Shown piece after piece: positions 49,627 to 62,543 of a DNA stretch of 64,000 bases. How positions within the stretch are numbered: the first letter of the stretch is position 1; every line of letters starts with the position of its first letter. A program made the translations under genes and the position numbers. Under the pieces are notes generated by a model. The model did not search any database and was not told where the DNA came from. It worked only from the letters and a program-made list of their open reading frames with translations. Source of the stretch: an uncultured Alphaproteobacteria bacterium (lineage in GTDB: Bacteria > Pseudomonadota > Alphaproteobacteria > Rhizobiales > Xanthobacteraceae); contig CAWGOW010000002.1 in assembly GCA_963824305.1 (NCBI GenBank), positions 118,413 to 182,412 on the forward strand, given 5' to 3'.

Positions 49627-50328
49627 ATGACAGTTGGAGCCATGCGAAAGAAGCTTGAAAAGCCGTCTGCGAAAGAGCAGGGACAATCCAGCTCCCAGGC
49701 GGCTTATGCGTTGCTGATCGCTGAAATCGAAAGCGGCCGGCTCCAGCCGGGCAGCCGATTGCTGGAGGTTGAACTGGCCGAGCGGCTCGGCATCAGCCGG
49801 ACGCCGGTCCGGGAAGCGATCAAGCGTCTTGAGACCCAGGGCCTCGTCAGCCACGAGCCGAACCAGGGCGCGGTGATCACCAAACTCGATCATGCGCGGA
49901 CCGTCGAACTCTACATCGTCCGGGAAGTGCTAGAAGGCGTCGCCGCACGGCAGGCGGCAACTTCCGCGACAGCGCAAGAACTGGAAATTATTCGCCAGAC
50001 GATGGACGAGGATTGGAAATACGTCGACCGCCATGAGAAGCTCGTCATTCGCGACCGGCTGTTTCACAAGCAAATTCAGCTCACGGCACGAAATCGTTTC
50101 CTGGACGATATCCTCAATAACATGCGGATTTCGCAGATCCTTATGACGGGCACGACGCTTGCCGTGAAAGCGCGCCCTACCGCTCTTCTGGAAGAGCATC
50201 AGGCGATCGTGGATGCAATTTTGGCCCGCGATGCCGACAAGGCCGAAGCCGCTGCCCGGTATCACGTACGGCAGGCATTTGCCACCCGGCTGCGGCTGTA
50301 TGCCGACGCGCAACGCGACGGGATATAA
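49627..50328 (+). CDS. GntR-family transcriptional regulator (FadR/FCD subfamily)
   Basis: wHTH (LLEVELAERLGISRTPVREAIKRLETQGLV) plus a C-terminal all-helical FCD-like domain. Confidence 0.85.
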   Translation: MTVGAMRKKLEKPSAKEQGQSSSQAAYALLIAEIESGRLQPGSRLLEVELAERLGISRTPVREAIKRLETQGLVSHEPNQGAVITKLDHARTVELYIVREVLEGVAARQAATSATAQELEIIRQTMDEDWKYVDRHEKLVIRDRLFHKQIQLTARNRFLDDILNNMRISQILMTGTTLAVKARPTALLEEHQAIVDAILARDADKAEAAARYHVRQAFATRLRLYADAQRDGI

Positions 50329-50522: not shown

Positions 50523-50752
50523 CGTTTGTGAAGTCTTGAGTAATCGGTTTGAGGGCGCTCCGCCTCCGTGGACATTGTTGAAGACTTCCCTGGGGCAGGA
50601 GCCGTCCAAGGTCGCGGTGCTTGAGCCGATAGCGACCTGACGGATAAAGGCTGCGGGTCGGTAAGGCTCCGAAGCCGCTTGCATTCGCTTATCGGTGACC
50701 ATGTTGACAAGCGACTCAGCAACGAAACCCGATTGACGGCGGGTGGCGGGAC

Positions 50753-50794
50753 TTGACTTGCCCCGGCACATTAGTCTACTTATGCAAGTAACAA
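50753..50794 (+). promoter_or_regulatory. Candidate promoter/operator: TTGACT-N14-AGTCTACTTATGCAAGTAACAA (contains the dyad TACTT-N4-AAGTA)
   Basis: This AT-rich 22-mer lies about 65 nt upstream of the crotonase start. It is 19/22 identical to copy 2 at 59618-59639 and has the same upstream TTGACT hexamer. Confidence 0.6.
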
Positions 50795-50858
50795 ATTGGG
50801 CTGCGACTGTCCGTCGAAACGCCCGAGAATTCATCGGCTGGGCGCCAAAGAGGTCGCG

Positions 50859-51632
50859 TTGGAGGAAATTCGAATCGATCGGCGCGGCAGCGTTGCCCAC
50901 GTCATTCTGGATCGGCCAGCCGTAAAGAATGCCGTGACGCACGCGATGTGGCGCGAATTGGCCGCGATCTTCGCTGGCTTCGCTGGCGATAAAGATGTCC
51001 GAGGGGTGGTCCTCAGGGGGGCGGGTAAAGACTTTTCTGTCGGCGCCGACATTTCCGAATTCGAAAAGATCAGAGACGACAAGCACCAGAGCGCGGCTTA
51101 CGAAGTTGCGGTCGACGCTTGCTCTGGGGCGATCGCCGCGCTTGGAAAGCCAGTCGTAGCGGCTATTTCCGCCTATTGTCTCGGCGGCGGCTGCCACCTC
51201 GCGCTCGCGTGCGATTTCCGCTTCGGTGATCGCAGCGCGACGATGGGCATTCCTTCGGCAAAGCTATCCATCGTGTACGGGGTTCATAGTGTGCAGCGCC
51301 TGTTGGCGATCACGGGCGTATCGAACGCGAAGCGCATTCTCTACTCGGCCGACAGTTATTCTGCCGAGCAGGCTAACTCGATGGGTCTGATCGACGAATT
51401 GCACCAAGACGCGAGCTTGGCCGCTGAGGTGTTTCTAGAGCGGCTGGGGGTAAACGCGCCTCTCTCGATTTCCGGCGCCAAATACATGCTGAACGGCCTT
51501 TCGATGGGAGCTGGCGCGCTCGATCTGGCGGCTGCGCAGCGGCTCATCGATGCCGCCTCCGACAGCGCCGATTTCAAGGAAGGCCGACGGGCGTTTGCTG
51601 AGAAGCGGTCACCACGGTTTCGCGGCGAATAA
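50859..51632 (+). CDS. Enoyl-CoA hydratase/isomerase-family protein (possibly a hydrolase-type member)
   Basis: Crotonase blocks (HVILDRPAVKNAV, GAGKDFSVGADI, AYCLGGGCHLALACD). The probable start is TTG 50859, which has AGAGG 6 nt upstream. The longest ORF starts at TTG 50796. Confidence 0.8.
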   Translation: MEEIRIDRRGSVAHVILDRPAVKNAVTHAMWRELAAIFAGFAGDKDVRGVVLRGAGKDFSVGADISEFEKIRDDKHQSAAYEVAVDACSGAIAALGKPVVAAISAYCLGGGCHLALACDFRFGDRSATMGIPSAKLSIVYGVHSVQRLLAITGVSNAKRILYSADSYSAEQANSMGLIDELHQDASLAAEVFLERLGVNAPLSISGAKYMLNGLSMGAGALDLAAAQRLIDAASDSADFKEGRRAFAEKRSPRFRGE

Positions 51633-51654
51633 GCACCAATTTTGGAGGGCACCG

Positions 51655-52515
51655 ATGAAGCCTGCCAAGTTCGACTATGTTTCGCCGTCGACGATAGGTG
51701 CTGCCATTGAGGCGCTGGTCGCGTCGAACGGTGAGGGTAAGGTGCTGGCCGGAGGGCAAAGTCTGCTGCCGCTCCTAAACTTCCGGATGGCTCGGCCTGC
51801 CGTGCTGGTCGATCTGAATCGCATCGAGGGATTGTCGTACATAGAGGATCGCGGCGACCGTATCGCCATCGGCGCTCTGACGCGCCATCGCGACCTCGAG
51901 CACTCGGCCTTGATCGCCGCAAAGCTGCCCGTGATGTCGGCGGCCATGCGCCATGTCGCGCATCTTGCGATCCGCAATCGCGGCACCATCGGCGGCAGTT
52001 TGTCCCACGCGGATCCGGCAGCCGAACTTCCTATGCTCGCGACTTTCTATGAGGCGGCGATCATCGTGCAGGGCCCGAAGGGCCGTCGAACGATCGCGCC
52101 GGGAGAATTCTTTGTCGACGCGCTGACGAACTGCTTGGAGCCGGAAGAGATCGTGGTGGAAATCGAATTTCCGTTCCTGAAGCAGGACGGTTGGGCGTTC
52201 GAGGAAGTGGCGCGCCGCTTTGGCGACTTTGCGCTTGCGTGCATCGCCATCTCTATTCGCCGCGGTGCGTCCGGAATGGAGGCCGCGCGTGTCGCGGTGA
52301 TGGGGGTAGCGGATACGCCGTTGCGTCTGAGGCAGGTCGAGCAGCAACTTGTCGCGATGGCGATCAACGGACAGACGCCCGATCGATTTTCGGAGATTGT
52401 CGCCTCGCAAGTCTCCCCGAACGGAGACATTCACGGCTCAGCCGAATATCGCAGGCATCTCTTGACGCAACTCGCGAAGCGGGCGTTGCGGACGGCGTTG
52501 GCGATGAAAGGCTGA
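51655..52515 (+). CDS. Molybdenum hydroxylase FAD-binding (medium, CoxM-like) subunit
   Basis: Start at ATG 51655 with a GGAGGG SD. AGGQSLLPLLNFR FAD motif. 286 aa. Confidence 0.88.
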   Translation: MKPAKFDYVSPSTIGAAIEALVASNGEGKVLAGGQSLLPLLNFRMARPAVLVDLNRIEGLSYIEDRGDRIAIGALTRHRDLEHSALIAAKLPVMSAAMRHVAHLAIRNRGTIGGSLSHADPAAELPMLATFYEAAIIVQGPKGRRTIAPGEFFVDALTNCLEPEEIVVEIEFPFLKQDGWAFEEVARRFGDFALACIAISIRRGASGMEAARVAVMGVADTPLRLRQVEQQLVAMAINGQTPDRFSEIVASQVSPNGDIHGSAEYRRHLLTQLAKRALRTALAMKG

Positions 52516-52519
52516 TTCG

Positions 52520-53002
52520 ATGACCATCAAGGTATCCTTGACCGTTAATGGAGAGCCACACGACGTGGCTGCGGTCGAGCCGCGTCTGCTTCTGTCTGAC
52601 TTCCTGCGGGATACGCTCGGTCTTACGGGGACACATGTCGGATGCGAACACGGCGTATGCGGCGCCTGTACCGTCTTGATGAACGGCGACAGCGTGCGCT
52701 CCTGCTTGATGCTGGCCGTCCAGGCCAACGGCGCGGAGATCGTCACCGTCGAGGGGCTCGGTACGCCGGAACAGCTGAATGTGCTGCAGACCGAGTTCCG
52801 TGAGCACCATGGGCTTCAGTGCGGCTTCTGTACGCCGGGCATGCTGATGACAGGTGAGGATCTGCTTCGGAAGTATCCGCTTGCGACCGACGATGACATT
52901 CGGGAGGGCCTTTCTGGCAATCTCTGCCGTTGCACTGGATATCAAAACATCGTCGCGGCGATCAGAAGCGCGGCCGCCAAGCGCACGGAGAAGGCGCCAT
53001 GA
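52520..53002 (+). CDS. Molybdenum hydroxylase [2Fe-2S] (small, CoxS-like) subunit
   Basis: 160 aa with both cluster motifs ([12 protein letters not shown]; QCGFCTPGM...NLCRCTGY). Confidence 0.9.
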
Positions 53003-53760
53003 AACTCAATTTTCTTACAGCTGGCCGCCTTCGGATGAAGAAGAGCATCTACGTGGCCGGCGCCGATCGGACCGAAACCATCGACCTTCCCGTCAGCAGC
53101 GCATTGATCCGGCACAAGCAGGGCAATGTGCTGTTCGATACCGGCTGCCACCCCTCCGTGGTCGATAACGCCGAGGACCGCTGGGGGCCGCTTGCCAAGG
53201 TCATGAATCCGATCATGAACGCGGGCGAGACTTTGCTGCCAAGCCTCACATGCACCGGGCTTGAGCCGGACGACATCGACATTGTCGTGAACTCGCACTT
53301 CCATCCCGACCATTGCGGCTGCAACCAATTCTTCAGGAAGGCGACGATCCTCGCGCACACGAGGGAAATCGAAGCGGCAAACGCTCCGGGTGCCGAAAAT
53401 GCGGGCTATCTTAGGGCCGACTGGAATACCGGACAGGGTATCGAGGCCGTAGCCGGAGAGAGGGATCTGTTCGGCGATTCCAGCGTCGTGCTGTTGCCGT
53501 TGCCGGGTCACACGCCTGGAACACTCGGTGCGCTGGTCGGCCTGGATCGTGACGGTCAGTTCTTGCTTGCTTCCGACTCGGTGAGTCTTCGACAGAACCT
53601 AGATGCCGACGCAGCGCCTCGAAACACCTGGAACGTCGACCAGCAGCTGAAGACCTTCGATGAAGTCAGGCGTATCGAGAGGGGAGGCGCTACCGTGATT
53701 TGCGGCCATGACGACCAGCAATGGCGGGTCTTGCGCAAGGGAAGCGAAGGCTATGAGTAG
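52999..53760 (+). CDS. Metallo-beta-lactamase-fold lactonase (AttM/AiiB-type N-acyl-homoserine-lactonase family)
   Basis: Start at ATG 52999, overlapping the coxS stop (ATGA). SHFHPDHCG (HxHxDH), PGHTPG, ASD and CGHD metal ligands. 253 aa. Its stop lies 5 nt after the coxL start. Confidence 0.8.
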   Translation: MKLNFLTAGRLRMKKSIYVAGADRTETIDLPVSSALIRHKQGNVLFDTGCHPSVVDNAEDRWGPLAKVMNPIMNAGETLLPSLTCTGLEPDDIDIVVNSHFHPDHCGCNQFFRKATILAHTREIEAANAPGAENAGYLRADWNTGQGIEAVAGERDLFGDSSVVLLPLPGHTPGTLGALVGLDRDGQFLLASDSVSLRQNLDADAAPRNTWNVDQQLKTFDEVRRIERGGATVICGHDDQQWRVLRKGSEGYE

Positions 53761-56155
53761 CGATCGGATCGCTCATCCATCCGATGTGTTGCGGCCGCGG
53801 AACGTCGGCGCGCCCATCAAGCGCACGGAGGACCCGCGCCTTCTGACCGGCAACGGCGAGTACACGGCCGACCGCAACCCCGACCGAGCGCTGCATCTCG
53901 CCTTCCTTCGTAGCGGTCAGCCTCACGCCCGCATCAAACGGATCGACACCGCGGCGGCGCTGGCTGCGCCAGGCGTGCTCGCCGTGCTTACGGCCGAGGA
54001 TATCGCGGGAGACTTTCAACCCGTGATCCCGTTCTCACGGATGGCGAACTACTATGCGACGCCGATCGTGCCGCTTGCCTCCAGGAAGGTTCGCTATGTC
54101 GGCGAGGCGGTCGCGGCCGTCGTCGCGACGTCTCGCTACCTAGCAGAGGACGCGCTGGAGCTCATTGAAGTCGAATACGAATCTCTCGGCGCTGTCTCGC
54201 GCGCGGAGTTAGCCGTCGCGGACGATGCACCGCTCCTGCACGAAGAAGCCGGCACCAACGTCCTGATCGCGCGCGAATTCAAGAAGGGGGACGTCGCCGC
54301 AGACTTGAAGGCCGCGGCGGTCAGGGTAGGCGGGCGTTTCGAAATGACCCGCAAGGCGCCGCTTGCGATGGAGCCGCGAAGCTACGCTGCGGAATACGAA
54401 AAGCGCCGCGATGCGATCACTCTCTACACCTCGTCGAACATTCCCGGAATCGTCCGTGACGCCATTTCAGAGTCGCTCGGCCTGCCGGGCCATCGTCTCC
54501 GCGTCGTAGCTCCAGACGTCGGTGGAAGCTTCGGTTCGAAGGGTTCTCTCTACCCTGAAGAGTTGCTGATTTGCATCGCGGCGCGCAAGCTTCGCCGGTC
54601 GGTGAAGTGGACGGCGGACCGGCTTGAGGACGTCAGCAGCAGCAGCCAGGCATTCGGCGAAATCGTCGATGCGGAAATGGGGTTCGACGCGAACGGTATC
54701 GCAACCTCGCTGCAGGCCGATGTTATCGGGGACGTCGGAGCTTATTCGATCTATCCCTGGACTTGCGGACTTGAACCGGTTCAGGTCGTGAGCTTCCTGC
54801 CAGGGCCCTACAAGATCCGGTCGTATCGGGGCGCGGTGCGTGGTGTCGCGACCTGCAAGCCGCCGACCGGTCCGTATCGTGGCGTTGGCCGACCCATTTC
54901 GACCTTCGTTGCCGAGCGTCTGATGGACCTCGGCGCCAAGGCCCTCGGCATCGATCCTCTAGAGATCAGACGCCGCAATCTGGTCCGCGCCGAAGAGTTT
55001 CCGTATCGGATCGCTTCCGGGATTATCTGGGACAAGACCGGATTCGTCGAATGCCTCGACGCCGCCGCGAAAGCCGTCGGCTATGAGCAGCTTCGCAAAG
55101 AACAAGCCGAAGCGCGCAAGCAGGGGCGGCTGTTCGGCGTCGGCATCGCTACCTACGCCGAATTGACCGGCATCGGTTCGAGGATTGCGGTGGCGCCGGG
55201 CATGCCGATCAATACCGGCTCGGAGACGGCAAAGATCACGATCAACTCGACGGGTGCGATCACTGCCGCTTTCGGAGTCGCCTCTCACGGTCAAGGCCTC
55301 GAGACGACGTTGGCCCAGATCGTGGCCGATGATCTCGGCGCCCGGTTCGAGGATGTGCGCGTTATCCAGGGCGACAGCGACCAGGTGCCGATGTCGACCG
55401 GAACCTACGCGAGCCGTAGCGCAGTTCTGGGCGGCGGTGCGGCGAAGCACGCCTCGACGATATTGCAGGCGAAGATCAAGCAAGTCGCGTCGCATCTTCT
55501 CGAGGCCAATGCGGCCGACATCGAAGTGACCGATGGCAAGGCCACCGTACTCGGAACGGACCGCACCGTGAATTTCAAGCAGATCGCCAAGGCCGTCTAC
55601 GCCGACATGAAGACCTTACCAATGGACGCTCGCGAGGAGTTGAGCGCGACCTACACCTACGATCCGATCAACGGGACAACCGCGGCGGCCACCCACATCG
55701 CGGCAGTGGAGGTCGACCCGGTTAGCTGCTTCGTGCGGATCCTGAAATTTGTCGTCGCCGAAGACTGCGGCCGGATCATCAACCCGATGATCGTCGACGG
55801 TCAGGTGCACGGTGGTGTGGCGCAAGGCATCGGCGCTGCTCTGCTGGAGGAACTGATCTACGACGAGGATGGCCAACTCCTGACCGCGAGCCTCGTCGAC
55901 TACCTGATCCCTTCCGCCCCCGAGGTGCCGCTGATGGATGTCGTGCATATCGAGAGCGAGTCCGCGGTCGCCGGCGGCTTTCGGGGAATGGGCGAGGGCG
56001 GCACGATCGGCGCGCCGGCTGCAATTGCGAACGCGATCGCCGATGCGTTGTCGCCGCTCGACATCGATGTCTCGATTCTTCCGATGACGCCGGAGCGCAT
56101 CTTCAAATTGATGGAACAAGCCAGATTAAAATCAAGAGGAAAAGTAGATGAGTGA
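53753..56155 (+). CDS. Molybdopterin-binding large subunit of a xanthine dehydrogenase/CoxL-family hydroxylase (not a form-I CO dehydrogenase)
   Basis: Start at ATG 53753 (MSSDRIAHPSDVLRPRNVGAPIKRTEDPRLLTG). 800 aa. The loop reads GPYRGVGRP rather than the VAYRCSFR of CODH. The catalytic Glu context FRGMGEGGTIGAP is present. Confidence 0.88.
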   Translation: MSSDRIAHPSDVLRPRNVGAPIKRTEDPRLLTGNGEYTADRNPDRALHLAFLRSGQPHARIKRIDTAAALAAPGVLAVLTAEDIAGDFQPVIPFSRMANYYATPIVPLASRKVRYVGEAVAAVVATSRYLAEDALELIEVEYESLGAVSRAELAVADDAPLLHEEAGTNVLIAREFKKGDVAADLKAAAVRVGGRFEMTRKAPLAMEPRSYAAEYEKRRDAITLYTSSNIPGIVRDAISESLGLPGHRLRVVAPDVGGSFGSKGSLYPEELLICIAARKLRRSVKWTADRLEDVSSSSQAFGEIVDAEMGFDANGIATSLQADVIGDVGAYSIYPWTCGLEPVQVVSFLPGPYKIRSYRGAVRGVATCKPPTGPYRGVGRPISTFVAERLMDLGAKALGIDPLEIRRRNLVRAEEFPYRIASGIIWDKTGFVECLDAAAKAVGYEQLRKEQAEARKQGRLFGVGIATYAELTGIGSRIAVAPGMPINTGSETAKITINSTGAITAAFGVASHGQGLETTLAQIVADDLGARFEDVRVIQGDSDQVPMSTGTYASRSAVLGGGAAKHASTILQAKIKQVASHLLEANAADIEVTDGKATVLGTDRTVNFKQIAKAVYADMKTLPMDAREELSATYTYDPINGTTAAATHIAAVEVDPVSCFVRILKFVVAEDCGRIINPMIVDGQVHGGVAQGIGAALLEELIYDEDGQLLTASLVDYLIPSAPEVPLMDVVHIESESAVAGGFRGMGEGGTIGAPAAIANAIADALSPLDIDVSILPMTPERIFKLMEQARLKSRGKVDE

Positions 56156-56897
56156 CTTGAAAGGACGCGTGGCCCTCGTGACCGGGGGCGGCCGGGACGT
56201 GGGCGCGGGCATCTCCAAGATGCTTGCGAAGCATGGTGCAAGCATTGCCGTCAATTATCACAGTTCAAAGGCCGAGGCGGAAGCTGTCGTTGCCGAGATC
56301 CAAAAGGCGGGCGGCAACGCGAAGGCCTACCAAGCCGACATCGCGGATGCGGACATCGTCAGGAAGATGATCGCGGACATCAAGAACGATTTTGGCAGAC
56401 TGGACATCCTCATCAACAACGCCGGCTTGGTATTGCGCAAGCGTTTCAGCGAGAGCACGCCCGAGGACTGGAAAAAGCAGATCGACACTTGCCTTTACGG
56501 TGCGCTGAACTGTTCTCATAGCGCAGGTCCATTACTCGAGGCGTCGGGCCACGGACGTATCATCTCGATCATGGGCGACTCCTCCAGGGTCGGTGAATCC
56601 GGGCTGGCGCTTGGAGCCGCGGCGCGCGCGGGCACTATCGCGCTGATGAAGTCGTTGGCACGTGAATGGGGTCGTTCGGGCGTGACTGCAAACTCGATCT
56701 CGCTTGGTCTTATCGAGACGGCGCACGACAAGTCCTGGGTCGACGCGAACCGCGAAAAGCTGGTCAAGGCTTACGCGATTCGCCGGCTCGGGCTGCCGTC
56801 CGACGTGGCGCCGCTGGTTACATTGCTCGCGTCGGATGCGGGTGGCTGGATCACCGGGCAGGTGATCAGCATCAATGGTGGATACAGTATGGTCTAG
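56148..56897 (+). CDS. SDR-family oxidoreductase (FabG-like)
   Basis: TGGGRDVG cofactor motif. 249 aa. Its start overlaps the coxL end by 8 nt. Confidence 0.85.
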   Translation: MSDLKGRVALVTGGGRDVGAGISKMLAKHGASIAVNYHSSKAEAEAVVAEIQKAGGNAKAYQADIADADIVRKMIADIKNDFGRLDILINNAGLVLRKRFSESTPEDWKKQIDTCLYGALNCSHSAGPLLEASGHGRIISIMGDSSRVGESGLALGAAARAGTIALMKSLAREWGRSGVTANSISLGLIETAHDKSWVDANREKLVKAYAIRRLGLPSDVAPLVTLLASDAGGWITGQVISINGGYSMV

Positions 56898-56909
56898 GGG
56901 AATACGGCG

Positions 56910-58451
56910 ATGATGGACGTTGATTTGATCGCTCCAATTGCGCTGCTGATGAATCGGCACCTGAAGAACCGGCCCGAGCAGATCGCTTACTCGGATTCGG
57001 TCAGTTCCGTAACGTACAAGCAGCTGGCGGACAACACGGCGACCATCGCCTCCAACCTGGCAAAGGCGGGACTTCGCGAGGGCGACCGCGTCGCCCTCTA
57101 CCTGCCGAATAGTGTCGACTCGATCGAAGCGTGCTTTGCCGGGCTCAGGGCCGGGGCCGTGATCGTCCCGATAAGCTATGATGCGGCTGAAGGCGAGATC
57201 AGCTACCGGCTCACCGATGCCGATTGCAGCGTTATCGTCACGACCGCCGAAAGAAAAGAATTGGTGACGAAGATCTCGCGGGTAGCCAATATTGCTCCAC
57301 GAATGATCTTCGCCGGCCATGGTGCAGAGCAAGCGGGCACGGCGCTGGCTAATCTGGCGGAGCATGCCGACACCAAGCCGCTCGATCCCGAGGATATCGA
57401 TCGCTCGTCCTTTGTCATTTACACATCGGGCACCACCGGACGCGCCAAGGGCGTGCTTCTTTCGATACGCGGTATGCTTTGGATAGCGGCTTCCTGTTGG
57501 GCTCCGATCTGCGGGCTTAGCGCAAAGGACGTCGTTCTCTCGCCGCTACCGTTGTTTCATTCGTATGGTCTCAATCTGTCAGTGCTCAGCGTTCTTGCGA
57601 TCGGCGCAAGCGAACACCTCATGGAGCGGTTCTCTCCACAGCTCGCTTTGGACCTGATGCAGTCGGGCAGATACACCATCTTCCCCGGCGTCCCGACCAT
57701 GTTTCACTATCTGCTGCATCGGGCGCAGGAGACCCGGGTCGAGCGGCTGGGCAATATCCGGCTTTGTATCTCAGCCGGCGCCATCATGCCGGCAACGTTG
57801 AACCGAGCCTTCGAGGAACGCTTCAAGACACCGTTGCTCGATGGATACGGCATCACCGAGACGTCCACCATGGTCACCATGAATTGGCTCAGCGGCACGC
57901 GGCCCAGCGGCTCGTGCGGATTGCCGGTGCCGGGGCTCGCGGTACGCATCGTCGATCCCAACACGCTCGAAGATGTTCCGATTGGTGGCGAGGGCGAACT
58001 GATCGTCCGCGGACCAAACCTCATGCAGGGCTATCATAACAAGCCGACGGAGACTGCGTCGGCGCTCCGCAAGGGGTGGTATCACACGGGAGATCTCGCC
58101 AAGTCGGACCCGGCCGGCTACCTGACCATCACGGGCCGGATCAAGGAACTGATCATCCGGGGCGGTCAGAACATCGCGCCTGCCGAGATCGAGGAAGTCG
58201 TCGTTCGGCATCCCCAGGTCAAGGACTGTGCGGTTGTCGGTGTGAAGCATGCGACGCTGGGGGAGGTGCCTTGCCTCTTCGTCGTCGCGAACGGAAATGA
58301 GTTGGATGTTTCGTCTCTGATGGATCATTGCAGGGCGCATTTGTCTGCCTACAAGATTCCGGAGGCGACCCATCTCGTCGGAGAAATTCCTCGTACCGGC
58401 TCCGGAAAGATCATGCGCTTCAAGCTGGCCGAAGCCTTGAGCAAATCGTGA
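56910..58451 (+). CDS. AMP-forming acyl-CoA synthetase/ligase (ANL superfamily)
   Basis: 513 aa with the AMP motif YTSGTTGRAKGV, plus GYGITETS, TGDLA and GKIMRFKL. Confidence 0.88.
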   Translation: MMDVDLIAPIALLMNRHLKNRPEQIAYSDSVSSVTYKQLADNTATIASNLAKAGLREGDRVALYLPNSVDSIEACFAGLRAGAVIVPISYDAAEGEISYRLTDADCSVIVTTAERKELVTKISRVANIAPRMIFAGHGAEQAGTALANLAEHADTKPLDPEDIDRSSFVIYTSGTTGRAKGVLLSIRGMLWIAASCWAPICGLSAKDVVLSPLPLFHSYGLNLSVLSVLAIGASEHLMERFSPQLALDLMQSGRYTIFPGVPTMFHYLLHRAQETRVERLGNIRLCISAGAIMPATLNRAFEERFKTPLLDGYGITETSTMVTMNWLSGTRPSGSCGLPVPGLAVRIVDPNTLEDVPIGGEGELIVRGPNLMQGYHNKPTETASALRKGWYHTGDLAKSDPAGYLTITGRIKELIIRGGQNIAPAEIEEVVVRHPQVKDCAVVGVKHATLGEVPCLFVVANGNELDVSSLMDHCRAHLSAYKIPEATHLVGEIPRTGSGKIMRFKLAEALSKS

Positions 58452-58459
58452 TTGGACGA

Positions 58460-59566
58460 TCAGTCGACCGAACGCGGCCCCAAGGCGCCGAACGATTCCG
58501 GATCGTAGGTCAGCCGATAGCGCATGTCCGCGGCGACGATCGGCTGTTTGCAGCGATCGCAGTTCACCGACGGTTGGAAATCGTGTCCACATTTGAGATG
58601 GGTGAGTATCAACGGAGGCTTGCCCTTGGAGAGCCAACGGTCGCCCCATTGCAGCATCGCGATGAAGGGGCCATAGAGGTCCAACCCCATGTCGGTGAGA
58701 AGATACTCGTACCGGTCCGGGGAACTTTGGTACTGCCTGCGATGAAAGACGCCGCTGGCAACCAGGCGATTGAGCCGATCGGTCAGGATGTTCGGCGCGA
58801 TCGCGAGTTCGGTCAGGATCTTGTCGTAGCGACGGTTGCCGAAAAAACCCTCGCGGACAACCATGAAGCTCCACTTGTCGCCGATGATTTCAAGCGCGCG
58901 CGAAACCGAACTTGGGCGGCCTTGCACGAACCGGCTGCCGTCGGAAGGACGCCTGGTGTTGCGGCCGGGTTTGGCAAGACATCGTCCGGCACCGGGGCCA
59001 TCGCGGTATTTGGCATCGCGGGCGCTGACAGCTTCGCCACAATCGGAGCAGGCGACGATGGGGTGGCTGTCGCAACCACAGACGCCGTGGATCAGCGTCA
59101 GCGGACGAGGCTTGTCCTTGAAGAGCCAGCGGTCTCCGAATTGCATCAGCGCGATGAAGCTCGGATAGAGATCAAATCCCATCTTCGTCAGGCGATATTC
59201 CTTGCGTCGCGAAGATCCGGGCGCGACCTGTCGGAAGATGGCGAGTTGGGTAAGCTTTCTGAGCCGATCGGTCAGGGTCGCCCGCGGAATGCCGAGCGCG
59301 GAGCGGAACGCTTCGAACGTTTGGGTGCCGAAGAACGCCTCGCGGATGATCAGGAATGCCCAGGCGTCGGAGACGATGTCCAGCGTGCGAGCGACCGAAC
59401 AATTGCGCTCGGTGCGGACGATGCCGGTTCGCCCCGCGGGCGCCACCGATCTTGGCTTCAGCGGGGATTTGGTCGTTTTTTTTATTTTGGCGGCGGCGGG
59501 CATCCCGACCTGTCCATTACGCGGCAGCCACGACGGCAGCCTTCGAAAGTCGCGCAGCTTTACCAC
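58460..59566 (-). CDS. Tandem-duplicated HxlR (DUF24)-type winged-helix regulator; each half carries a C-terminal His/Cys (H-x2-C...C-x2-C) module
   Basis: Half 1: CSVARTLDIVSDAWAFLIIRE...GDRWLFKDKPRPLTLIHGVCGCDSHPIVACSDCGEAV. Half 2: VSRALEIIGDKWSFMVVRE...GDRWLSKGKPPLILTHLKCGHDFQPSVNCDRCKQPI. The start is GTG 59566 or, more likely, ATG 59503. Confidence 0.75.
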   Translation of the reverse strand: MVKLRDFRRLPSWLPRNGQVGMPAAAKIKKTTKSPLKPRSVAPAGRTGIVRTERNCSVARTLDIVSDAWAFLIIREAFFGTQTFEAFRSALGIPRATLTDRLRKLTQLAIFRQVAPGSSRRKEYRLTKMGFDLYPSFIALMQFGDRWLFKDKPRPLTLIHGVCGCDSHPIVACSDCGEAVSARDAKYRDGPGAGRCLAKPGRNTRRPSDGSRFVQGRPSSVSRALEIIGDKWSFMVVREGFFGNRRYDKILTELAIAPNILTDRLNRLVASGVFHRRQYQSSPDRYEYLLTDMGLDLYGPFIAMLQWGDRWLSKGKPPLILTHLKCGHDFQPSVNCDRCKQPIVAADMRYRLTYDPESFGALGPRSVD

Positions 59567-59576
59567 AACGGTACGA

Positions 59577-59639
59577 TTGACTAGCCGGAAATATCAGTCT
59601 AGTTACGCATGTAAGTAAGTCTAGTTATGCTAGTAATAA
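59577..59639 (+). promoter_or_regulatory. Candidate promoter/operator: TTGACT-N13 followed by two tandem 22-bp direct repeats (AGTCTAGTTACGCATGTAAGTA / AGTCTAGTTATGCTAGTAATAA)
   Basis: Read directly in the HxlR/SBP divergent intergenic region. The repeats lie at 59596-59617 and 59618-59639 and are 17/22 identical. The same motif occurs at 50773-50794. Confidence 0.65.
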
Positions 59640-59680: not shown

Positions 59681-60907
59681 ATGAAGCTGAGGATCGAAAG
59701 CCTCCTGATCGCGTCGGCGGCGATCTTGATGGTCAACTGCGGCGCCGGAGCGCAGACCACGAAGATCTCGGATGACGTCGTCAAGATCGGCGTGCTGACG
59801 GATATGTCGGGACAATTCTCGCACGAATCCGGAGAAGGCTCGGTGACGGCGATCAGGATGGCCGTTGAGGATTTCGGCGGCAAGGTTCTCGGAAAGCCGA
59901 TCGAGGTGATCGTCGCCGACCATCAGAACAAGCCGGATACCGCTTCCGCACTGGCGCGCAAATGGTTCGACGTGGACCACGTCGATATGATCGGCAACCT
60001 GATCAATTCGTCGATCGCGCTCACGGTTGCCGGGCTCGCGAAAGAAAAGAACCGGATCGCTATCATCAACGGCTCTGGGTCGTCCCGTCTCACCGGTGAT
60101 GCGTGCACGCCAAATAGTATTCACTATGCCTACGATACCTATGCTCTCGCGCGCGGAACCGGCGCCGCTTTGGCCAAGGCGGGCAAGAAGTCGTGGTACT
60201 TCCTGACGGCAGACTACGCGTTCGGGCACGCGCTCGAAGCCGACACCTCAGCGGTCGTGAAGGCGATGGGCGGCGAGGTTCTCGGGTCGACCCGTTATCC
60301 GCCTGACTCGTTCGATCAGTCCTCTTTCCTTCTGCAGGCGCAGTCGTCGAAAGCGCAAGTCGTGGCGCTGGCCGGCTCCGGTAATGTGCTGGTGAATTCG
60401 ATCAAGTCGGCGCAGGAATTCGGCATTCCGACCGGCGGCCAGACCCTCGCCGGTCTACTTGTCTGGATCACCGACGTCAGGAGCCTTGGACTTTCGGCAG
60501 CGCAGGGACTGGTTCTCACTAACGCGTTCTACTGGGATCGCGATGATGAAACCCGGGCCTGGTCTAGGCGCTTTTACGAGCGGACGAAGAAGATGCCGCA
60601 CATGGGCGATGCGGGCGACTATTCGTCGACAATGCACTATCTGAAGGCCATCGAAGCGGCCGGTACAGATGAGGCGCAAGCCGTCATGAGCAAGATGCGC
60701 GAGTTGCCGATCAACGATTTCTTCGCGAAGAACGGCCGGGTTCGCGAGGATGGCCGCATGGTGCACGACATGTACGTGTATGAAGTGAAAAAGCCTTCCG
60801 AGTCCAAGGGCGACTGGGACTTCTACAAGCTTCGCGAGGTGATCCCTGGGGACCAGGCTTTTCGTCCGCTGAAGGACAGCGCCTGTCCCCTGGTCAAAAA
60901 GGGCTGA
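59681..60907 (+). CDS. ABC transporter substrate-binding protein, Liv type (orphan SBP) with signal peptide
   Basis: 408 aa. GGGAGG SD. The signal peptide ends at GAGA-QT. It is a paralogue of the SBP at 42093-43313. Confidence 0.82.
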   Translation: MKLRIESLLIASAAILMVNCGAGAQTTKISDDVVKIGVLTDMSGQFSHESGEGSVTAIRMAVEDFGGKVLGKPIEVIVADHQNKPDTASALARKWFDVDHVDMIGNLINSSIALTVAGLAKEKNRIAIINGSGSSRLTGDACTPNSIHYAYDTYALARGTGAALAKAGKKSWYFLTADYAFGHALEADTSAVVKAMGGEVLGSTRYPPDSFDQSSFLLQAQSSKAQVVALAGSGNVLVNSIKSAQEFGIPTGGQTLAGLLVWITDVRSLGLSAAQGLVLTNAFYWDRDDETRAWSRRFYERTKKMPHMGDAGDYSSTMHYLKAIEAAGTDEAQAVMSKMRELPINDFFAKNGRVREDGRMVHDMYVYEVKKPSESKGDWDFYKLREVIPGDQAFRPLKDSACPLVKKG

Positions 60908-60986
60908 TGTTGGCGGATCCGTTTCGCCGTTAATTTGTACGCAATGCCGGCCGCCGCGAAACGGGGCCGTTTCTTAGGAGGCACAG

Positions 60987-62543
60987 ATGGATCAGGAAAC
61001 AATCGCCAGAGGCTTGGCGCCGAAATCCCGCAAGCCGATCAGGTCGGGCTCCGAGTATATCGACAGCCTGAGACACCGGAATCTTAAGGTCTATCTGATG
61101 GGCGAAATGGTCGACGAGCCCGTCGATCATCCGATCATCAGGCCTTCGATCAACGCGGTCGCGCAGACCTACGACCTTGCAAACGAAAATCCGGAACTTG
61201 CATCTGCCGTGTCGCCCTTTACTGGTGAGCGCGTAAATCGGTTTCTTCACATCTCGGCGAGCCCTGCCGATCTCGTCATGCAGAACAAGATGCAACGGCG
61301 CTTGGGGCAGCTGACCGGCACATGTTTCCAGCGTTGCGTCGGCATGGATGCGCTCAACTCGCTGCATTCGGTCTCGTACGATTTGGATGAAAAGTTTGGG
61401 ACCGAGTACCATCGGCGCTTCACGCAATTCCTCACCCAGATGCAAAAGGCGAATTTTGTAATCGGCGGTGCAATGACCGACGTGAAGGGTGATCGCGGAA
61501 AATCGCCTTCGCAGCAGGCCGATCCGGACCTCTTTGTGCATGTCACCCGACGCACCGCAGATGGTGTCTTCATCAGCGGCGCCAAAGCGCATCAGACTGG
61601 CTGCCTGAATTCACACTGGTTGATCGTGATGCCGACGATGCGGTTGGAGACTGCAGACAAGAATTACGCGATCGTTGGCGCGATACCGGTTGATGCCGAA
61701 GGCATCACCTACATCTATGGCCGTCAATCCTGTGACACCCGCAGCGCCGAAGGCGGCGATATCGATGTCGGGAACGCGCAATTTTCGGGCCAAGAAGCGA
61801 TGATCATCTTCGAGGACGTCTTTATTCCGCGAGAGCTCGTCTTCCTCGACGGGGAGTACGAATTTGCAGCCACACTAGTCGAGCGATTTACATGCTATCA
61901 CCGCCGCAGCTACGTCTGCAAAACCGGCGTTGGCGATGTCCTGATCGGCGCCGCAGCCACCATCGCCGATTACAACGGTGTCGAGCGGGTCTCACATATC
62001 AAAGACAAGCTCGTCGAAATGACGCATCTCAACGAGACGATCTACGGCACCGGCATTGCCGCGAGCCATCAGGGCATGAAAATGAAATCGGGCGCGTACC
62101 TGCCCGACGAGATGCTAGCTAATGTTTGCAAGCACCATGTCACGCGCTTGCCTTACGAAATTGGCCGGTTGGCGCAGGATCTTGCCGGCGGCTTGATGGT
62201 TACGCTGCCATCCGAGCTGGAGCTGCGACACGAAACCGTAGGTCCGATGATCGAAAAATATCTCAAGGGGCGCCCCGAAGTCGCGACCGAAGACCGCATA
62301 CGCATTTTGCGTTTGGTGGAGAACATGACGCTGGGCAGAAACGCGGTAGGATATCTCACGGAGTCCATGCATGGCGCTGGATCTCCGCAAGCGCAACGGA
62401 TTCAGATCGCGCGCTCAATGCAAATCGAATTCAAGAAAGAGTTGGCGAAAACGTTGGCCGGTATCGCGGCCGCTTCGCGCGAAGAGATATCGGACGACCT
62501 CTCCATGTACATGACACGAGTATTCGCGCCCGTCCGCAATTGA
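60987..62543 (+). CDS. 4-hydroxybutyryl-CoA dehydratase/vinylacetyl-CoA delta-isomerase family protein (AbfD-like; HpaB-fold FAD/[4Fe-4S] enzyme)
   Basis: 518 aa. From memory it is collinear with Clostridium aminobutyricum AbfD (DHPIIRPSINAV, CFQRCVGMDA with C-x3-C, GAMTDVKGDR, YGRQSCDTR, YHRRSYVCKTGVGDV with His...Cys, HGAGSPQAQRI). Confidence 0.8.
   Translation: MDQETIARGLAPKSRKPIRSGSEYIDSLRHRNLKVYLMGEMVDEPVDHPIIRPSINAVAQTYDLANENPELASAVSPFTGERVNRFLHISASPADLVMQNKMQRRLGQLTGTCFQRCVGMDALNSLHSVSYDLDEKFGTEYHRRFTQFLTQMQKANFVIGGAMTDVKGDRGKSPSQQADPDLFVHVTRRTADGVFISGAKAHQTGCLNSHWLIVMPTMRLETADKNYAIVGAIPVDAEGITYIYGRQSCDTRSAEGGDIDVGNAQFSGQEAMIIFEDVFIPRELVFLDGEYEFAATLVERFTCYHRRSYVCKTGVGDVLIGAAATIADYNGVERVSHIKDKLVEMTHLNETIYGTGIAASHQGMKMKSGAYLPDEMLANVCKHHVTRLPYEIGRLAQDLAGGLMVTLPSELELRHETVGPMIEKYLKGRPEVATEDRIRILRLVENMTLGRNAVGYLTESMHGAGSPQAQRIQIARSMQIEFKKELAKTLAGIAAASREEISDDLSMYMTRVFAPVRN

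Follow-up and report, generated by a model that had tools for sequence, protein, structure and literature searches.

How does a regulator of a family built as small homodimers read DNA when two of its units are joined in one chain? The question is raised by a gene of the HxlR family in a 64,000-nucleotide stretch of contig CAWGOW010000002.1, from an uncultured alphaproteobacterium of the Xanthobacteraceae (hereafter the window, to which all coordinates refer). The open reading frame (ORF) at 58460-59566 on the minus strand contained no internal stop codon in the open reading frame check, and encodes 368 residues from a GTG at 59566. The chain that it most likely yields has 347 residues and two HxlR units, unlike the single-unit subunit of about 100-130 residues of the HxlR/DUF24 family. 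From sequence comparison we favor, with modest confidence, the answer that the protein would be a single-chain reader of an asymmetric operator, acting as a local repressor and holding structural zinc.

The start codon is most likely the ATG at 59503, giving a gene of 347 codons and a stop (58460-59503, minus strand) in place of the longer listed ORF, because the orthologues are proteins of 346 residues with the N-terminus MPAxAK. The GTG at 59566 would adjoin the -35 element (59576-59581) of the neighboring promoter. Residue numbers (Cys56, H160, R205, H323 and others) follow the 368-residue ORF, and the strands and blocks of the AlphaFold2 model follow the 347-residue numbering. An earlier sequence-only reading of this DNA had described a single ORF with two complete HxlR copies, and this was borne out by the open frame, by the Pfam HxlR model (PF01638), which matched twice as expected, in two separate stretches (E = 5.9e-36, 122.6 bits against a cut-off of 20.8; best stretch residues 227-314, in the second half), and by the alignment of the two halves, which are 46% identical over 136 residues that take in the tail of each unit (E = 4e-41). 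Models of the redox regulators RrpA and RrpB (NCBIfam NF047364 and NF047367) scored below their cut-offs (73.3 bits against 175, and 29.2 against 185).

The first winged-helix domain (59126-59404, about residues 55-147), which is the first PF01638 stretch, contains Cys56 and aligns with residues 9-124 of PA1607. It is followed by a C-terminal module of β-strands and knuckles (58982-59125; GDRWL...H160-x2-C163-x9-C173-x2-C176...YRDGPGAG), a linker of reduced model confidence (58916-58981), in which the arginine R205 is 84% conserved, the second winged-helix domain (58637-58915, about residues 218-310), with the signature GIAxNIL in its recognition helix, and a second C-terminal module (58502-58636; GDRWL...H323-x2-C326-x9-C336-x2-C339), all on the minus strand. 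Both tails have the form GDRWL...H-x2-C-x9-C-x2-C...Y. The Cys/His tail proposed after each winged helix thus stands, with its central spacing corrected from x10 to x9, the value that the long pattern given in the sequence-only reading itself yields. The same reading had placed an N-terminal Cys in half 1 alone, which is correct (Cys56 lies in CSVARTL, and the aligned position of half 2 is Ser); its statement that such a Cys is typical of redox-sensing family members applies locally only, as the position is Cys in 19% of the wider doubled family and most commonly Ser. Two further frames that overlap the regulator and CoA-ligase genes, 58328-59584 (plus strand, 418 residues) and 57771-58874 (minus strand, 367 residues), look like shadow frames of high-GC DNA rather than genes.

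The DNA around the gene contains a motif with the consensus AGTCTAsTTAyGCAwGTnA, found as AGTCTASTTAYGCWWGTAA at 50773, 59596 and 59618. These three matches in 64 kb compare with 0.00 expected from 100 shuffles, so that the repeats noticed earlier near the gene (59596-59636 and 50773-50791) are real, and they are the sole matches in the 6.45-Mb genome (7 contigs, 99% complete) with up to 2 mismatches allowed. Two units lie in the gap between the regulator gene and the divergent binding-protein gene: O1 (AGTCTAGTTACGCATGTAA, 59596-59616, plus strand), whose CTAGTT at 59599-59604 would be the -10 element of the binding-protein operon promoter, and O2 (AGTCTAGTTATGCTAGTAA, 59618-59638, plus strand), 22 bp downstream of O1. 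The third, O3 (AGTCTACTTATGCAAGTAA, 50773-50793, plus strand), lies before the operon for a crotonase, a molybdenum (Mo) hydroxylase, a lactonase-like protein, a short-chain dehydrogenase/reductase (SDR) and a coenzyme A (CoA) ligase.

The motif was compared across 15 orthologous loci, whose regulator proteins are 71-93% identical (16 loci including this one). Before the crotonase gene, one copy of AGTCTACTTATGCAAGTnA was present, exactly one in all 15 orthologous loci. The gap between the regulator and binding-protein genes held 1, 2 or 3 copies of AGTCTAGTTAyGCATGTnA with a period of 22-23 bp: a single copy in six loci, a second copy in 10/16 and a third in one. Because the copy number varies among loci, the operator count would seem to be evolving by gain or loss of units. 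The locus with three copies (L034, G260:C163) has perfect tandem copies of AGTCTAGTTATGCATGTAACAAA with a 23-bp period. The flanks of the motif are unconserved across loci, apart from a -35-like hexamer. A 17-mer of the motif occurred in 17 of the 121 genomes of the genus, namely the 16 that carry the regulator gene and one genome that is 62% complete, and among the hits listed in the 16 gene-bearing genomes, all fell inside the locus. Inspection by eye for a dyad within a unit revealed trivial palindromes only (CTAG, ATGCAT, TTA-N6-TAA), and half-site symmetry was not found.

The restriction of the motif to this locus, its retention at the two promoters across 15 loci and its joint occurrence with the gene indicate that the nearby repeats are very probably the operator of the doubled HxlR, as the sequence-only reading had proposed. 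One unit of 19-21 bp would be a complete site, because the crotonase promoter always has exactly one copy and the gap has 1-3. A length of 19-21 bp is the span of the two winged helices in an HxlR/MarR-type dimer. The further claim, that a pseudo-dimer would bind direct repeats and so match the tandem copies, is not supported, since a single unit suffices and the copy number varies from 1 to 3. By reasoning, a distance of 22-23 bp, about two helical turns, would be more than the two heads of a single compact protein could span, and the tandem copies are therefore more likely to be separate sites for separate molecules. The fusion explains the asymmetry of the site, not its direct repetition.

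We propose that one chain, acting as a homodimer would, reads one asymmetric operator of 19-21 bp, each head recognizing its own half. The operator would cover the -10 element and transcription start of both promoters, that of the crotonase operon and that of the divergent binding-protein (AbfD-like) operon. Once bound, the protein would obstruct RNA polymerase and so repress both operons, and any extra tandem units would be occupied by further molecules along the same helix face. A signal from the pathway, such as a substrate, a CoA thioester or a reactive intermediate, would then release the protein from DNA. The CoA-dependent catabolic nature of the target cluster suggests a metabolite signal; an electrophile or redox signal is possible, given that Cys56 is invariant in the orthologues.

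Weighing against the proposed model, strict matches to AGT-N6-ATGMAWGY were absent near six distant loci with doubled homologues (L005, L006 and L041-L044). Fuzzy matches over the same six loci occurred at about chance frequency, the exception being three that cluster upstream of L041, so that conservation of the operator across the family was not confirmed from these loci. The present motif has the core AGT-N6-ATGCAAGT, and three loose matches to this core, with two mismatches each, lie within about 60 nt at ~1155-1217 of L041 (G341:C461). This cluster is apparently just upstream of a 46%-identical doubled homologue and may be a diverged operator array. A repeat search upstream of distant and single-copy relatives was uninformative.

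The direction of control depends on how the two promoters are read. Upstream of the binding-protein operon, a -35-like ATTGAC (59576-59581, plus strand) precedes CTAGTT by 17 nt, a distance kept in 16/16 loci. Upstream of the crotonase operon, CTTGAC (50752-50757, plus strand) lies 18 nt upstream of CTACTT (50776-50781); (C)TTGAC is present at this promoter in 16/16 loci, at the same distance in 15 and closer in L033. We infer that (C/A)TTGAC-N17/18-CTAsTT is a promoter overlapped by the motif. The assignment is based on the alphaproteobacterial housekeeping promoter consensus CTTGAC-N17-CTATAT, from work on Sinorhizobium. Counting against it, an E. coli-type promoter scan gave no match at either promoter. 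The runs returned for the locus included no RNA run. The runs holding the locus were metagenomes (peat, soil) or unlabelled, all but one listed as DNA; those with the largest share of locus DNA were peat metagenomes or carried no organism label, and the genome may be that of a Bradyrhizobium assembled from a metagenome.

If the promoter reading is right, an operator over the -10 element and start, with extra units downstream, is in the position of a repressor, and the doubled HxlR is likely to repress both operons. Most characterized members of the HxlR family (YodB, QsrR and CatR, HypR aside) are repressors as well. A less likely alternative is that the protein is an activator or dual regulator at the same sites, recruiting or remodeling RNA polymerase upon a signal. 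The precedent, which tells against repression, is HxlR of B. subtilis, an activator with two tandem sites, whose solved entries, 7bzd and 7bzg, carry the annotation 'HTH-type transcriptional activator'; the binding-protein operon here also has tandem units upstream, and neither promoter has a good E. coli-consensus -10 element, weak promoters being often in need of activation. However, the first unit lies 17-18 nt downstream of the conserved TTGAC, over the -10 element and start, and the extra units extend toward the gene, a placement that suits repression better than activation.

Each His-Cys3 site of the tails would, in the reading that we prefer on balance, hold a structural zinc that stabilizes a small β module. 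An AlphaFold2 model of the whole chain, built from a 113-sequence alignment, had a predicted local distance difference test (pLDDT) score of 90.9 and a predicted template modeling (pTM) score of 0.86, with lower confidence at the N-terminus, linker and C-terminus only (pLDDT 72 in block 181-190). A pTM of 0.86 means that the halves are confidently placed relative to each other, fitting a compact form of the single-chain pseudo-dimer named in the sequence-only reading, and the chain as modeled fits a pseudo-dimer of the 'long' HxlR type. Module 1 contains strands at 135-139, 149-152 and 164-168, with block-mean pLDDT of 89-98 across the module. In both β-rich tails the His and first Cys lie at a strand end or turn and the CxxC at the end of the next strand, so that both knuckles are flanked by strands; in the model, this layout is that of a zinc ribbon.

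Conservation of the ligands was evaluated in a wide sample of 115 doubled representatives (31-56% identity) and a close sample of 114 orthologues. In the wide sample, H160, C163, C173 and C176 of half 1 were conserved in 95%, 93%, 94% and 95%, and H323, C326, C336 and C339 of half 2 in 95%, 91%, 93% and 93%, so that the expected conservation of the Cys/His positions among homologues was confirmed (91-95%). The full eight-ligand set was present in 98/116 sequences, with losses mainly by whole knuckle, and all eight ligands together with Cys56 were invariant in 114/114 orthologues. Joint conservation of the two-knuckle, four-ligand set (H-x2-C...C-x2-C) is what zinc ribbons require.

Several results weigh against a structural zinc. 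Curated zinc-ribbon models gave weak matches in the Pfam scan (Zn_ribbon_3, E = 0.43; zf_UBZ, E = 0.11), and a profile of the module gave weak, mostly zinc-knuckle matches (CTCF, LIM, RPB12, RpoP and bL32), the best being partial with E = 0.005. In addition, the nearest solved relatives, PA1607 and PA1374, form the same tail without Cys or His, and a metal is therefore not needed for the fold as such. The likeness to zinc ribbons and knuckles (RPB12, RpoP, bL32, LIM, C2H2) lies in the two knuckles (H/CxxC and CxxC) at β-hairpin turns; their sequence match to the module is not significant, and the first ligand here is His.

A rather improbable alternative is that the His-Cys3 sites are sensors, acting as a zinc-thiolate redox switch or a metal-sensing site, with oxidation or metal loss freeing the DNA and Cys56 as a possible partner. 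Conservation of the four ligands in both halves, and the correlation of ligand losses between the halves, would be consistent with such a role. Characterized members of the HxlR family mostly sense via Cys chemistry, and the N-terminal Cys of PA1607/BosR has been proposed as an oxidative sensor (PMC9611778). The sensor reading can also draw on Cys165, His168 and His328, which are conserved beside the ligands in Bradyrhizobium orthologues. However, the standard layout of a structural zinc ribbon is one of H/CxxC...CxxC knuckles on β hairpins, PA1607 and PA1374 have the fold of the present tails but no ligands, and the regulated genes form an ordinary catabolic cluster (CoA ligase, binding protein, transporter), pointing to a metabolite signal.

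In the Bradyrhizobium orthologues the first knuckle reads H-x2-C-G-C-D-S-H, with an additional Cys165 (96%) and His168 (94%) (window 59078-59089 and 59048-59074, residues 160-168), and half 2 has an additional His328 (58583-58585) that is 89% conserved. These three residues are not conserved across the wider doubled family, and could be alternative or additional metal ligands.

That the motif is not the operator of the doubled HxlR at all, but an element of the promoter or leader, or a site for a different factor, with the regulator controlling something else or itself, is very unlikely. Part of the motif does coincide with the presumed -10 element, and in this genome a gene for a GntR/FCD-type regulator (49627-50328, plus strand) lies just upstream of operon 1. 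However, the conservation extends at least 12 bp past the -10 hexamer, whole units recur 1-3 times with no -35 element of their own, and the motif is confined to gene-bearing genomes (with the one incomplete exception) and there, among the hits listed, to this locus. No GntR/FCD gene was seen in the 15-kb regions of the 15 orthologous loci. The one here looks like a neighbor rather than part of the conserved cluster, and the doubled HxlR is therefore the sole regulator that travels with the motif. Moreover, the site is asymmetric, as two unlike heads predict, and GntR-type sites are palindromic. Control of the motif by the GntR/FCD regulator was rejected on these grounds.

An assembly or annotation artefact fusing two neighboring single HxlR genes, for which the unusual length and the peat-metagenome runs that match the window most closely might speak, is rejected as having a negligible chance, because the frame is open here and in 15 other genomes, several of them single-contig, 933 homologues have equal length, the doubled proteins fill about 288 clusters, and the linker has conserved residues.

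The doubled architecture was searched for with HMMER over 1.84 billion cluster representatives, with E ≤ 1e-30 as the threshold for the doubled family. This gave 288 clusters at 50% identity across several lineages; most of the best 150 representatives have 300-340 residues, with matches that span both halves. The named members belong to Bradyrhizobium, Sphingopyxis, Kordiimonas and gammaproteobacterial metagenome-assembled genomes, and are annotated solely as 'HxlR family' or 'winged helix-turn-helix' regulators. By sequence, the doubled architecture is a widespread family and not a local oddity. Within the genus, the gene was present in 16/121 genomes, with the frame open in all 16, and this, with the hundreds of protein clusters, disposes of a hidden stop or frameshift. 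At the level of the order it was found in 6/151 genomes at the same threshold, two of the six being doubled forms outside the genus, and at the level of the class in 4/401. The gene is thus accessory.

Single-copy relatives point to the origin of this family. Proteins of 170-171 residues, for example from Bradyrhizobium and Afipia, have the same H-x2-C-x9-C-x2-C followed by a GPG motif, and fill 4329 clusters. They consist of the same unit (winged helix, GDxW, His-Cys3, GPG), are 44-45% identical to half 1 and, unlike the doubled chain, carry one unit per chain, so that a symmetric dimer is expected. These proteins are presumably the ancestral homodimeric form. In a tree of the separated halves, sequences grouped by position (5-7 label changes, compared with ~31 for shuffled labels), which indicates that duplication and fusion took place once or a few times, long ago, and that the halves then diverged. 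The recognition helices differ family-wide, with GIAxNIL in half 2 (70-90% conserved) and a weaker GIPRxxL in half 1 (GipRstL). We suggest that an ancestor of about 170 residues, made of a winged helix and a C-terminal β module pinned by His-Cys3, was duplicated and fused, after which the two heads diverged.

The presumed targets are the two operons that flank the regulator gene. Operon 1 (50796-58451, plus strand) encodes an enoyl-CoA hydratase, the flavin adenine dinucleotide (FAD), 2Fe-2S and Mo subunits of a CoxMSL-type hydroxylase, a lactonase-like protein of the metallo-β-lactamase type, an SDR and a CoA ligase that forms adenosine monophosphate. Operon 2 (59681-62543, plus strand) encodes a periplasmic binding protein (59681-60907) and a protein of the HpaB/AbfD family (60987-62543), and is followed by a major facilitator superfamily gene at 63017. 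The order crotonase, FAD subunit, FeS subunit, lactonase-like protein, Mo subunit, SDR, CoA ligase, regulator (on the opposite strand) and divergent binding-protein gene is kept in 15 loci, and in every locus the binding-protein gene and the regulator gene diverge. The AbfD/HpaB-like gene follows the binding-protein gene in 9/16 loci, and operon 2 is therefore variable beyond its first gene. In L033 and L035-L040 the AbfD/HpaB gene is not within about 2.5 kb downstream of the binding-protein gene.

As a tentative proposal, conceivable rather than likely, doubled HxlR proteins may form an undescribed class of one-component regulator: a monomer with two diverged winged helices on an asymmetric operator, in which the two His-Cys3 zinc modules and the Cys of half 1 make up the sensor, as a thiol/zinc switch or an acyl-CoA pocket. 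The textbook picture of HxlR/MarR-type regulators is that of symmetric homodimers bound to palindromic sites. If the proposal is true, sensing would be one-sited and directional, in contrast to the symmetric sensing of all studied HxlR, YodB and QsrR dimers. The family offers a natural, widespread single-chain form with a sharply defined, asymmetric and strictly locus-specific motif. Natural variation is built in, as the copy number is 1, 2 or 3 and the two promoters carry two variants of the sequence. It could therefore serve as a system for testing how gene fusion lets the heads of a dimer diverge, how half-site specificity is encoded in the HxlR family, and what role the conserved His-Cys3 modules play. 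It would also provide a handle on the expression and elucidation of an uncharacterized CoA-dependent Mo-hydroxylase/lactonase pathway and, should the effector be found, could lead to an orthogonal repressor-operator pair.

The closest known system by fold is PA1607/BosR of Pseudomonas aeruginosa (2f2e_B), with 130 aligned columns, a template modeling (TM) score of 0.84 on the target and 32% identity (sequence E = 5e-19), followed by PA1374 (4gcv) and then YodB, HypR, HxlR, QsrR and YtcD (TM 0.7-0.85 on targets). PA1607/BosR and PA1374 share with each half here the winged helix and a C-terminal extension of equal fold, and with half 1 an N-terminal Cys in the context CxVAR. Both fold match and model place the doubled protein, with its β extension after the winged helix, beside this 'long' PA1607/BosR-like subgroup. 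These two relatives are single-copy chains of 146-168 residues, compared with two units here, and the doubled architecture was present in no solved chain among the structure matches. The tail of PA1607 is without His or Cys ligands, VRLVERDSGQPVP aligning to LTLIHGVCGCDSH in an alignment that runs through the start of the tail. PA1607 is BosR, which is linked to biofilm growth (PMC9611778) and not to a catabolic cluster.

The wider family shares the fold and departs further in design. HxlR (7bzd/7bzg), YodB (5hs7), HypR/YybR (4a5n) and QsrR of S. aureus (4hqe) have the same PF01638 winged-helix fold. Like the regulator described here, characterized HxlR/DUF24 regulators are local and often divergent from their targets; they differ in being homodimers of about 100-130 residues without a C-terminal module. 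Their sites, such as the YodB and QsrR boxes, are palindromes or close to it. The sensing N-terminal Cys of these regulators is kept in half 1 but is not conserved across the doubled family, where it is Cys in 19%. No description of a natural doubled, tandem or pseudodimeric HxlR was found in the literature searched. The protein is a clear member of the HxlR family by domain and fold, one that departs from the small-homodimer design and carries a conserved, probable metal module.

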